IMG/VR virus record: IMGVR_UViG_3300028364_000026
Location: 1 to 64,000 of that record
Strand: one strand, 5' to 3'
DNA: 64,000 bases
Source of the DNA: a virus
Of the stretch, positions 22,891 through 25,273 are shown piece after piece. Under the pieces are notes generated by a model that was not told where the DNA came from, made no database searches, and saw nothing but the letters and a program-made list of their open reading frames with translations. How positions within the stretch are numbered: the first letter of the stretch is position 1; each line of letters begins with the position of its first letter. The translations under genes and the position numbers were made by a program.

Positions 22891-22977
22891 ATGAAAAACA
22901 ATAAAATAACCATCACCCCAGTTGGTCGCAAAATTAAGGTATTAGTAGTACCTAGCGACAGAACTGGGGTGAGCTGA
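22891..22977 (+). CDS. 28-codon N-terminal segment of the downstream glycosyltransferase, in a different frame
   Basis: MKNNKITITPVGRKIKVLVVPSDRTGVS-stop; KIKVLVV reads as the first beta strand of a GT-B fold; removing 7 nt fuses it in frame to YFRSTNPH... Confidence 0.7.
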   Translation: MKNNKITITPVGRKIKVLVVPSDRTGVS

Positions 22978-23020
22978 TAGCTATTTTCGCTCAACCAATC
23001 CACATATTTCTTTAGAAAGA

Positions 23021-25273
23021 ATGTTCCCAGATGAATTTCGAGTTGATATTGATTATGAACCAAAATTAGATGATGACACATGGTTAAAACAATATAATAT
23101 AGTTCATTATCATAGAAGCTTGGGACCTAATTCTAAAACTGAAGAACTACTTAAACGTTTAGACTCTTTAGGTATCTGTTCAATTATGGATTTAGATGAT
23201 TATTGGTCACCAGGAATTGACCATCCAGCATACCACATTATTAAAAATAACAAACTAGATAAAATTATAGTAAATAATTTATCTTTAGCGAGAAATATTA
23301 CAACAACAACTAGTTTGTTTGCTGATGAAATATCTAAAATAAATAAAAATGTTTTCGTTTTACCTAATTCAATTGATACTAACGAAAAACAATATAAACT
23401 AAATTTAGAAGCCTCGAACAAAATAAGAATTGGTTGGTTAGGTAGTTCATCACATGAAAAAGATTTAGATTTATTAAAGGGCGTTGCCGCTAAATTAAAA
23501 TCTGATGGTTTACTAGAAAAAGTTCAATTGGTTTTGTGTGGTTTTGATACTAGAGGTCAGTATACTCATATAAACAAAGAAACTGGAGAACAAACACATC
23601 GAAGTATTGAACCAGAAGAATCTGTTTGGGTCAAATACGAAAAAATATTTACTGATGATTATAAAATAGTAAGTCCAGAATATAAAAAATATTTATTAAA
23701 ATATTCAAACGATACTGAATACCCAAACCTTAGTAATGAACCGTATAGACGTGTTTGGACGAAATCTATCTCAACCTATGCAACGAATTATAATCTATTT
23801 GATATTTCCCTTGCACCTATTGAAGTAAATACTTTTAATAAAATGAAATGCATTGTTGGTGATTCACTAATTTCGACAAATAAAGGGTTTAAACATATTG
23901 AGGATATTGTAAAATACGAAACTGTTTTAAAAACTGAAATTAACGGCAACGCAAATGATGTTATTAATTATTTTAAATACGATAATGTTAACACTATTAA
24001 AATAACAACTAAAGATGGATACAATATAGAAGGTACACCTCATCATAAAATAATGATTGATAATAAATGGGTTAAATTAGAAGACTTATCTATTGGTGGT
24101 ACAATCGAATTACTAAAACCAGAATTCTTACAGACAGAATATCAAGAGATTACTTACCCTATGCTATTAACTAAAAATGTCACTCAAGCAAAAATTGATG
24201 CTTCGGATGAAAATATGTTACCTAGAATAAGGATAAACGAAAATTGGGGTAGGTTATTAGGTTATTTATTGGGTAATGGTAATTATAATGGTAGTTCTGA
24301 TATCAGTATTACTTGTGATAAAAGACACATTGATGTGGTTGAAGATGTAGTTTCATTATATAAATCTATTGGGTTAAATCCGTTAGTTTATGAAAATAAT
24401 TTAAGTAAAGATGGCAACGCAGTAGATGTTAAATCAACATGTGTTAATTTTTTATCAATAGCTAAAAAATATGGTTGGTGTGGAACTAAGGGTAAAACAT
24501 ATAGAATACCTAAAGTTATTTTAGAATCCCCAAAATCAGTCATTAAGGAGTTCTTAAAAGGGTTAATTGAAACGGATGGGACCGTAACAACTAACGGTAT
24601 TGTTAGTTTTTATAGTAAAGATATTAAATTAGTAGAACAAGTTCAAATTCTATTATTAGGGTTTGATATTCAAAGTTCTATTTCCTACAGCTATAATAAA
24701 AGCCACAAAAAATATTATTATAATTTAAACCTACGAAGAGAAGGGTCTGAAAATTACTTGAAATATATCGGGTTTGTTTCTAAAGGTAAACAAGAGCGTT
24801 TAAATCGCTTAAAATATAGTACAAGGAGTAATAATTTCATTAAACAAGAAATGACAAATGAAATAGTTAATATTGAACATAAAATAAATTCCGTTTATGA
24901 TGTTGAAGTCGATACAGTCCACCAATATAACGCAAATGGTATTAGAAACCATAATAGTCAATTAAAAGCAATTGAAGCTGGGTTCCACAAAAAAGCTATT
25001 ATAGCACAAGATTTTGGTCCATATCAATTAGACTTAACAAGTGCAATTAAGTATGGTGGTGAGATTGACTATACAGCAAATTCGATTTTAATCGACCCTA
25101 GAAAAAATAATAAAGATTGGTATTCAGCTATTAAAAAATTAATTACTAATCCAGAGTTAACTAAAAAATTACAAGAGAATCTACATGATACGGTAAAAAA
25201 TACTTACTCTATTAAAACGGTTACTGAAGCTAGAAGGAAATTATACTATGACTTATTAGGTAAATCTGACTAA
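23021..25273 (+). CDS. GT-B (GT4-like) glycosyltransferase with intein; true N-terminus probably at 22891
   Basis: MDLDDYW, IGWLGSSSHEKDL, DISLAP..FNKMK|SQLKAIEAG motifs. Confidence 0.85.
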   Translation: MFPDEFRVDIDYEPKLDDDTWLKQYNIVHYHRSLGPNSKTEELLKRLDSLGICSIMDLDDYWSPGIDHPAYHIIKNNKLDKIIVNNLSLARNITTTTSLFADEISKINKNVFVLPNSIDTNEKQYKLNLEASNKIRIGWLGSSSHEKDLDLLKGVAAKLKSDGLLEKVQLVLCGFDTRGQYTHINKETGEQTHRSIEPEESVWVKYEKIFTDDYKIVSPEYKKYLLKYSNDTEYPNLSNEPYRRVWTKSISTYATNYNLFDISLAPIEVNTFNKMKCIVGDSLISTNKGFKHIEDIVKYETVLKTEINGNANDVINYFKYDNVNTIKITTKDGYNIEGTPHHKIMIDNKWVKLEDLSIGGTIELLKPEFLQTEYQEITYPMLLTKNVTQAKIDASDENMLPRIRINENWGRLLGYLLGNGNYNGSSDISITCDKRHIDVVEDVVSLYKSIGLNPLVYENNLSKDGNAVDVKSTCVNFLSIAKKYGWCGTKGKTYRIPKVILESPKSVIKEFLKGLIETDGTVTTNGIVSFYSKDIKLVEQVQILLLGFDIQSSISYSYNKSHKKYYYNLNLRREGSENYLKYIGFVSKGKQERLNRLKYSTRSNNFIKQEMTNEIVNIEHKINSVYDVEVDTVHQYNANGIRNHNSQLKAIEAGFHKKAIIAQDFGPYQLDLTSAIKYGGEIDYTANSILIDPRKNNKDWYSAIKKLITNPELTKKLQENLHDTVKNTYSIKTVTEARRKLYYDLLGKSD
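23849..24955 (+). mobile_element. intein (369 aa) with LAGLIDADG-type domain in glycosyltransferase
   Basis: starts CIVGDSLI, ends NGIRNHN before Ser+1; GTPHHK block B; LGYLLGNG and KGLIETDG motifs. Confidence 0.93.

Follow-up and report, generated by a model that had tools for sequence, protein, structure and literature searches.

Interrupted glycosyltransferase gene

A glycosyltransferase (GT) gene at positions 22891–25273 of the lake-phage record IMGVR_UViG_3300028364_000026 from IMG/VR, the first 64,000 nucleotides (nt) of which were analyzed and are called the window below, is broken after its 28th codon by 7 nt that probably represent a programmed coding gap: ribosomes would hop over it with the aid of a conserved hairpin, in a short variant of the bypassing known from gene 60 of phage T4. 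The record itself is a metagenome assembly of 88,629 bp, with a completeness of 25% according to CheckV.

The gene occupies the plus strand, as do all parts described here. Its first part is a 28-codon open reading frame (ORF) starting with ATG at 22891, encoding MKNNKITITPVGRKIKVLVVPSDRTGVS (window 22891–22974) and ending with AGC-TGA-TAG, exactly as located in the initial annotation of the site. The last sense codon, AGC (Ser; 22972–22974), is the take-off codon, followed directly by a TGA stop (22975–22977), which would be placed in the ribosomal A site at take-off, and by an in-frame TAG (22978–22980). A second AGC, the landing codon (22979–22981), is repeated 7 nt later in the +1 frame and represents the only triplet of the gap, in any register, with which the take-off tRNA could pair again. 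The coding gap UGAUAGC (22975–22981) therefore extends from the stop through the landing codon. After the second AGC the frame reads YFRSTNPHISLE... and continues for 763 codons up to a stop at 25271–25273; this resumed ORF (22982–25273) encodes an enzyme of the GT-B/GT4 type matching the glycosyltransferase family PHROG 7162. The 28 codons before the gap, here called the cassette together with the stop and the gap, consist of two parts: an N-terminal extension (codons 1–13, MKNNKITITPVGR, 22929 being its last base from 22891), which is not present in the uninterrupted homologues and encodes the 5' strands of the hairpin, and a copy of the normal GT N-terminus (codons 14–28, KIKVLVVPSDRTGVS, 22930–22974), whose residues are the same as in the homologues and which is comparable to the 'homR' of the T4 MobA element.

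Of 4591 candidates in a protein search that used the part before the intein of the resumed ORF as a query, 3981 were relatives at E ≤ 0.001; identity reached 65–70% in the best of them, which were 408–431 residues long. In all 12 homologues that were read the sequence ...VLVVPSDRTGV[S/G][Y/F]FRS... was contiguous, with nothing corresponding to the 7 nt, which means that skipping exactly these 7 nt restores the N-terminus of the family with a ...TGVS-YFRS... junction, as was initially proposed. Other searches were less productive: Pfam Glycos_transf_1 matched the window protein at 0.002, below the cut-off, a PDB sequence search with a GT homologue returned nothing useful and megablast of 22600–25400 against the phage collection gave no match. 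The 7 nt represent real DNA, because in three additional runs from lake water (X3, X4 and X5) the Logan contigs span 22965–22990 with 0 differences and 0 gaps; the X1 contig was also identical over 22965–22990, X1 being possibly the source sample. None of the sequencing runs listed as containing the site was an RNA run.

Recurrence of the interruption at the same codon

The interruption was not private to this genome. Among the 80 IMG/VR loci obtained by searching with the protein, the same codon was broken in 8, the other 72 being uninterrupted. A degenerate DNA pattern, '...PSDR[TS]GV[SG]-stop', detected 21 loci in viral contigs and 49 in metagenome contigs; 48 of the latter were the cassette, while the match L152 was rejected as an unrelated GC-rich sequence. 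The same scan of viral contigs with TAG as the stop gave 0 matches. Finally, a profile scan with the neighboring endonuclease (see below) showed the cassette in 23 of 80 loci and added 12 variants lying outside the DNA pattern; apparent 'gaps' in the endonuclease loci L181–L231 were spurious, and in L185, inspected by eye, a nuclease gene was followed by a normal GT start. After deduplication this made a total of 101 phage or metagenome loci with 51 sequence variants, all broken at the same codon. Such a number of distinct variants with the same layout at one codon is far more than chance would give.

The take-off codon was either AGY or GGY in all 51 variants, and the stop directly after it was UGA in 37 and UAA in 14, never UAG. 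Gap length varied from 5 to 15 nt, most often being 6 (15 variants), 7 (10) or 8 nt (16), with fewer gaps of 5 (2), 9 (3), 10 (1), 12 (1), 13 (2) and 15 nt (1). By length, 20 gaps are in frame, 13 are +1 and 18 are +2, and since they fall in all three frames no fixed frameshift fits; all 20 in-frame gaps begin with a stop, although a plain insertion of two codons would have been possible. On the comparison of these variants, a hop is the only single mechanism able to explain all 51, while both a fixed frameshift and readthrough fail.

The landing triplet is located directly 5' of the resume codon, and its first two bases were those of the take-off codon in 45 of the 51 variants. The remaining six pairs were all AGY>GGC, while the reverse, GGY>AGN, was never found; tRNA-Ser(GCU) could hold GGC through a U36.G wobble, whereas GGY>AGN would require a C.A mismatch. 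Re-pairing in any register was possible at a single triplet of the gap, the landing codon, in 38 out of 39 variants inspected, the exception (L131) having an overlapping GGG one base before it. The AGY>GGC group (L111, L112, L114, L117, L131 and L134, plus 8 duplicate loci) has intact downstream ORFs throughout and looks like a Ser-type cassette that recombined into a resident gene with Gly at this position. No Shine-Dalgarno (SD)-like element was present 5' of the landing codon, the gaps being A/U-rich and free of a G-run in front of it. A take-off stem-loop inside the gap was not found either: 5–15 nt leave no room for it, and the window has only a 4-bp AGCU/AGCU mini-hairpin.

Hairpin abutting the take-off codon

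The cassette RNA folds into an extended hairpin of ~58 nt (22914–22971), the last base of which is directly 5' of the take-off codon. It consists of three helices: P1, with CACCCCAGUU (22914–22923) paired to AACUGGGGUG (22962–22971); P3, with GUCGC (22925–22929) paired to GCGAC (22955–22959); and P2, with GGUAUUA (22937–22943) paired to UAGUACC (22947–22953). The fold of window 22910–22985, including the short AGCU/AGCU stem, had an energy of -32.8 kcal/mol (z -6.0 against shuffles). A different stem had been proposed in the initial annotation, with GGUGAGC (22968–22974) paired to GCUCAACC (22989–22996) and enclosing the stops; it was absent from the minimum-free-energy fold, in which GGGGUG belongs to the conserved hairpin 5' of the take-off codon, and its downstream partner was not conserved in the relatives.

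Covariation was measured on an alignment of 38 variants with the full 84-nt cassette. P1 was 93.7% paired, and four of its nine pairs showed compensatory changes on both sides, for example pair 24–84 (CG 17, AU 8, GC 7, UA 2); the natural pairs of P1 strands include CACCCCAG/CUGGGGUG and the alternative AACUCCAG/CUGGAGUU. P3 was 95% paired, its pair 38–69 being represented by GC 17, GU 12, AU 8 and AC 0. None of 500 shuffles reached the observed covariation, and partners slid by 1–3 columns paired at no more than 49%. The variants without N folded alike, with a mean of -28.8 kcal/mol (range -33.6 to -23.1), and the base directly before the take-off codon was paired in 44 of 50 variants. Folds limited to -45..+45 around the site had no shared structure, because the 5' strand of the hairpin was cut off, and an Rfam scan of 22700–23200 found nothing near the gathering score. 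In a window-wide scan for a stop with a matched codon and long ORFs, which gave 221 candidates, a strong abutting hairpin was present only at the GT site (-29.1, against -20.2 for the next candidate, which was non-abutting).

The N-terminal extension was present in all 51 variants, with a pre-gap ORF of 28 codons in 39 of them and of 26–29 codons in 50, while in uninterrupted genes the S/G codon was reached in 17 codons in 37 of 50 contexts. The extension RNA is complementary to the codons directly before take-off. The codons conserved within it form the 5' strands of P1 and P3, and its residues vary where the pairing is kept. The third bases of the pre-take-off Thr, Gly and Val codons covary with the extension, and an Arg/His difference within it (CGC/CAC) compensates AGC/AGT in the Ser codon; the extension therefore seems to be conserved at the level of RNA, and a separate nascent-peptide signal is not evident. 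In the G-run before the site, GGR was used in 14 of 14 interrupted contexts, compared to 22 of 50 uninterrupted ones.

Homing-endonuclease origin of the cassette

The origin of the cassette can be read from the gene order in L086, a locus of a 362-kb contig: a homologue of window 22268–22801 is followed by the leftover of an old GT start (MKKLKVLVVPSDRTGVSYF, then unrelated sequence), a 298-codon ORF and the cassette, whose ATG lies 14 nt before the stop of the 298-codon ORF, so that the nuclease gene ends 14 nt into the cassette. This ORF matched NUMOD3 (E 5.9e-6, above the Pfam cut-off) and the 'homing endonuclease' family PHROG 3339, and a profile of five members matched the DNA-binding domain of I-TevI (1i3j, E 5.5e-5), while the C-terminal ...IEYNGDYWHCNP... 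weakly resembles nucleases of the PD-(D/E)xK/Vsr type (Pfam E 0.08). The nuclease combines an I-TevI-like zinc finger and a NUMOD3 module with a C-terminus that is probably of the PD-(D/E)xK type.

The nuclease gene was intact in L086, the L061 and L070 groups and L104, broken or truncated in L087, L090, L042 and L060, preserved only as a relic in L039, L103 and L071, and absent from L007, L092, L099 and the window; no homologue of it was found in the 88.6-kb record of the window, which makes ~25% of the genome by the CheckV estimate. The leftover GT 5' ends upstream in L086, L087 and L090 stop 1–2 codons past the take-off position, which places the insertion point at the gap site. Judging from this organization, a homing-endonuclease element that invades the GT gene in related phages has the cassette, with its extension, copied N-terminus, stop and gap, as its right-hand end, and the window appears to hold an orphan cassette that has lost its endonuclease. 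The excision footprint considered initially was half right in this respect.

Interrupted genes are dispersed over the GT tree: among 67 sequences the interrupted state required 14 changes (14.6 with shuffled labels), at least 9 of them forced by well-supported branches. The loci L006 and L007, without and with the interruption, respectively, are ~98% identical on both flanks, the tract in which they differ extending around the site between about -300 and +12. A terminator-like hairpin, GGGTCT...AGACCC with a T-run, is located in the window at 22809–22832, after the upstream gene; its counterparts in L006 and L007 have paired changes and lie within the tract exchanged together with the cassette.

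More distant nucleases of the same family are located between the upstream gene and the GT gene in L063/L064 (about 2103–2960) and in L185 (2489–3259). The codons that follow the site in L063 (TTC CGT TCA) show synonymous recoding, which may be a different escape from cleavage.

Proposed mechanism

In the mechanism that we propose, a ribosome would translate the 28-codon ORF of the cassette until its P site holds AGC and its A site UGA, the latter being a rare stop in this genome (TGA ends 2 of 55 long window ORFs, TAA 51). At this point the 3' strands of P3 and P1, located in the 17 nt before take-off, would be in the mRNA exit path, with the 5' strands outside. Re-zipping of P1 and P3, the likely driver, would then pull the mRNA forward over a distance of the order seen in the gaps: the peptidyl-tRNA-Ser would unpair, the mRNA would slide by 7 nt and the ribosome would stop at the first codon with which the peptidyl-tRNA can pair, i.e., AGC at 22979–22981, with decoding resumed at UAU. 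The product would be a single glycosyltransferase with the normal ...TGVS-YFRS... junction. The gap, in turn, would split the target of the nuclease and make its carrier immune, while the hop would repair the gene at the protein level. This role of the gap is suggested by analogy with MobA and gene 60, since the T4 bypass insert protects its carrier from MobA according to the available text of bioRxiv 10.1101/2022.08.31.505936; the nuclease-bearing GT genes without a gap indicate that it is not the only solution. The stop-hop with matched codons, as initially suggested for the window, holds in its core and fits the 51 variants, but the 5' hairpin and the homing-endonuclease origin had been missed.

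Alternative explanations

The alternative that survives best, although unlikely, is split expression, with termination at UGA and separate synthesis of the remaining protein by re-initiation of a non-canonical kind, at the landing codon or beyond it; the short peptide of 28 residues would then be either useless or trans-complementing. Termination is the default outcome at a stop, and genes split by homing endonucleases are described for T4 in the accessible part of bioRxiv 10.1101/2022.08.31.505936 (gene 39/60, nrdA). Re-initiation, however, would lack a start: no ATG/GTG/TTG is conserved near the landing codon, the first in-frame one being from 5 to 69 codons downstream. Furthermore, the first 45 codons after the resume point had a pooled pN/pS of 0.19 (14 pairs), indicative of purifying selection on the post-gap sequence, and the cassette keeps the exact GT N-terminal residues KVLVVPSDRTGV[SG] through synonymous changes (Arg AGG/CGT/AGA, Leu TTA/CTT/CTA). 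The position of the break in the fold also disfavors two separate products. In the AlphaFold (AF2) model of the homologue P0001 (pLDDT 77), for which Foldseek found GT4 enzymes including 7qsg, 6tvp, 3c4q, GlgM, MshA and BshA (E 1e-11 to 1e-7), residues 4–9 form strand beta-1 of the GT-B fold and residue 17, after which the gene is broken, is placed where helix 1 begins, so that the break separates two elements of one domain. The pre-gap piece is predicted to be an integral part of the fold, since the model places it in strand beta-1 and the start of helix 1.

It is somewhat less probable still that the gene is a dead or dying allele in which the 7 nt are a tolerated inactivating insertion. Such a possibility is raised by the near-identical L006 and L007, with and without the interruption, which suggest a possibly dispensable gene, and by the loss of the endonuclease from the window. 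The downstream part, however, behaves as a living gene: 44 of the 45 complete downstream ORFs were full length (386–423 codons, or 763–780 with an intein), and dN/dS between interrupted genes was 0.04–0.27 even at dS of 0.7–1.6 (L060/L071, dS 0.68, ratio 0.05; L123/L131, dS 1.0, ratio 0.04). In addition, the splice junctions of the window intein are still intact, and conservation among the 51 variants, with compensatory changes, extends to the hairpin, the stop and the matched codon.

A +1 ribosomal frameshift at AGC-U, similar to the shifty stop of prfB, would give ...GVS-DS-YFRS... with two extra residues. It had been listed as an alternative in the initial annotation and is now very improbable. 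The two frames of the window do differ by +1, and a G-rich SD-like run, CUGGGGUG, is present directly 5' of the site, just as a G-rich, Shine-Dalgarno-like run precedes the shift site in prfB. But 38 of the 51 gaps are not +1 (13 are), tRNA-Ser(GCU) would be unable to re-pair on GCU and the two extra residues occur in no homologue. As for the G-run, an SD-like tetramer was found upstream of only 4 of the 55 long window ORFs, so that the use of SD looks rare in this phage system; the run is explained by the hairpin as a part of P1, and its role as an SD-like stimulator was set aside.

Even less credit can be given to a removal of the gap from the RNA by hairpin-guided cleavage and ligation before translation. 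A strong conserved hairpin does abut the site, and RNA ligases are encoded by some large phages; to our knowledge, however, no system removes 5–15 nt from a bacterial mRNA, no Rfam family matched, and the asymmetric rule (AGY>GGC seen, GGY>AGN never) fits re-pairing of a tRNA and not ligation. An assembly or sequencing artefact, also considered initially and conceivable for a metagenome assembly, is practically negligible, with the same 7 nt in the contigs of X3, X4 and X5 and the same architecture in 50 other variants.

Several points weigh against the programmed hop itself. It is deduced from comparative sequence alone: the anatomy, conservation, covariation, selection and endonuclease link were seen directly, and we infer the hop, the hairpin as its motor and immunity as the function of the gap. 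The DNA pattern fixed CCTAGYGAC, GG and GT, so that part of the conservation in 69 of the 101 loci is by construction; the positions that covary were free in it. The landing codon differs from the take-off codon by a third-base A in 10 and by the first base in 6 of the 51 variants, and the matching of the two codons, instead of being a selected signal, could simply follow from the way in which the element fuses the segment it has copied with the resident gene. As for the hairpin, it could have a different function, for example in mRNA stability or in expression of the nuclease. The GT genes downstream of the more distant nucleases (L063/64, and L185 by eye) are uninterrupted and extension-free, which means that the gap is not required for the residence of a nuclease. 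Finally, the downstream ORF of L108, a 1718-nt record with Ns, stops after 159 codons, the only such case among the interrupted loci; it could be either a truly decayed copy or a poor assembly. On balance, the GT cassette is real and conserved, and most likely a functional, very short, hairpin-assisted variant of programmed translational bypassing, as far as can be judged from sequence comparison.

Comparison with known bypassing systems

The closest counterpart is the T4 MobA element with gene 60, for which the available text of Manning & Atkins (bioRxiv 10.1101/2022.08.31.505936) describes an N-terminal extension, a copied target region, a take-off stop, matched codons and progressive loss of the nuclease. 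The GT family shares with it the stop directly after the take-off codon, a matched landing codon before the resume codon with wobble variants, an N-terminal extension and a copy of the target sequence supplied by a mobile element, an adjacent upstream nuclease gene that degenerates while the bypass is retained, recurrent insertion at a single codon in the gene of a conserved enzyme and a stem-loop 5' of the take-off codon. The differences are equally clear. The gap is 5–15 nt (7 in the window) against about 50 in gene 60, i.e., approximately one-tenth, and has neither a take-off stem-loop nor an SD inside. The 5' hairpin is dominant and supported by covariation in the GT cassette, while in the gene 60 family it is not conserved, according to the same portion of the preprint. 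RNA pairing accounts for the positions conserved in the extension, with no evident nascent-peptide signal, in contrast to gene 60. The target is a GT4 glycosyltransferase instead of a topoisomerase (the Toprim region in the gene of the large topoisomerase II subunit), no working subunit is retained from the old 5' end, which is discarded, and the nuclease is not MobA. Pairing of the exiting mRNA has been proposed as the driver also for gene 60, as stated in the accessible part of Wills et al. (bioRxiv 10.1101/2024.12.09.627546).

The synthetic 'stop-hops' of 1987, as presented in the available text of Atkins et al. (2016; PMC5009743), occurred at a low level and in artificial constructs; the in-frame GT variants GGU-UAA-GGU and AGC-UGA-AGC have the same layout, and AGC-UGAU-AGC of the window has one base more, but the GT family is natural, conserved and equipped with a dedicated hairpin. 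The same text mentions that natural short-distance counterparts have 'long been presumed'. In the terminase gene of the Streptomyces phage Hau3, ribosomes skip inserts of 10 nt at UUA, a rare codon (Antonov et al., 2023; PMC10732093, from the part available). As in the GT family, the gene of a phage carries a short gap with a landing codon, the A site is occupied by a slow codon, and elements on the 5' side (a stem-loop and an SD) have been proposed as stimulators. It differs in that its trigger is a hungry sense codon linked to the development of the host and in being represented by few examples compared to 51 variants, and neither an endonuclease cassette nor an N-terminal extension is described in that part of the paper. 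That a hairpin refolding behind the ribosome, next to the P-site codon, favors its movement in the 3' direction follows from the accessible text of Cho et al. (2013; PMC3639245) and Huang et al. (2018; PMC6321510), although these studies dealt with +1/-1 frameshifting in engineered systems and the GT family would make hops of 5–15 nt. A literature search, which had subscription-only journals outside its coverage, found no paper on the GT hop family. Among more distant systems, the Byp elements in mitochondria of Magnusiomyces capitatus are also mobile coding inserts that ribosomes bypass, their take-off and landing codons being matched or nearly so. They differ from the GT gaps in their length of 27–55 nt and mitochondrial location, and they are not known to carry an endonuclease cassette.

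Other features of the window

The GT gene of the window additionally contains an intein of 369 aa (amino acids) with a LAGLIDADG endonuclease (23849–24955, plus strand), located between ...FNKMK and SQLKAIE... and matching LAGLIDADG_3 (5e-16), Intein_splicing (9e-10) and Hom_end (1e-4) of Pfam; the homologues read ...FNKVKSQLKVIE... across this position. The gene thus bears traces of two different selfish elements, the LAGLIDADG intein and the hop cassette. Intein-sized ORFs of 763–780 codons were present in 8 of the 45 complete interrupted homologues, and the L086 intein is inserted at another site, after ...RIGWLGGS.

A motif noted initially at 22857 is indeed present before the start of the cassette; it reads TATATTTAT and spans 22856–22864 on the plus strand, 27 nt 5' of the start codon. 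There were 20 copies in the window against 6.5 expected, a number reached in 0 of 100 shuffles; the sites, including another one at 20276–20284, were often ~20–35 nt before start codons. It is likely a phage promoter motif, and a promoter role can be suggested for the copy in front of the cassette as well. No tRNA genes were found in the window. Tandem repeats of ~30 residues (...NPSEAVQLAAVTENG...) characterize an ORF in the region of 26626–27501 and its neighbors.

Implications

Natural bypassing in bacterial systems has long rested on essentially one example, T4 gene 60 with its homologues. The GT family would be the presumed natural short counterpart, represented by dozens of variants in gap length, frame, stop and landing codon, and its hairpin, with compensatory changes and positioned exactly at the take-off codon, makes the cause of a forward push without decoding directly testable. 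If the hops are driven by hairpin refolding and carry homing endonucleases into coding sequence, as suggested below, the 51 natural variants are a ready-made allelic series for finding what drives ribosome sliding, and the same signature can be expected in other phage genes. Meanwhile, gene callers will annotate such hop genes as truncated or as pseudogenes.

In a wider, and decidedly more tentative, sense, short hops driven by hairpin refolding might join group I introns and inteins as a third type of vehicle that carries homing endonucleases into conserved coding sequence. The element would bring a new start, a complementary extension, a stop and the bases that break the site, and re-zipping of the hairpin, not the nascent peptide, would move the ribosome by 5–15 nt. 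Homing endonucleases may thereby have a further route of entry into essential genes.

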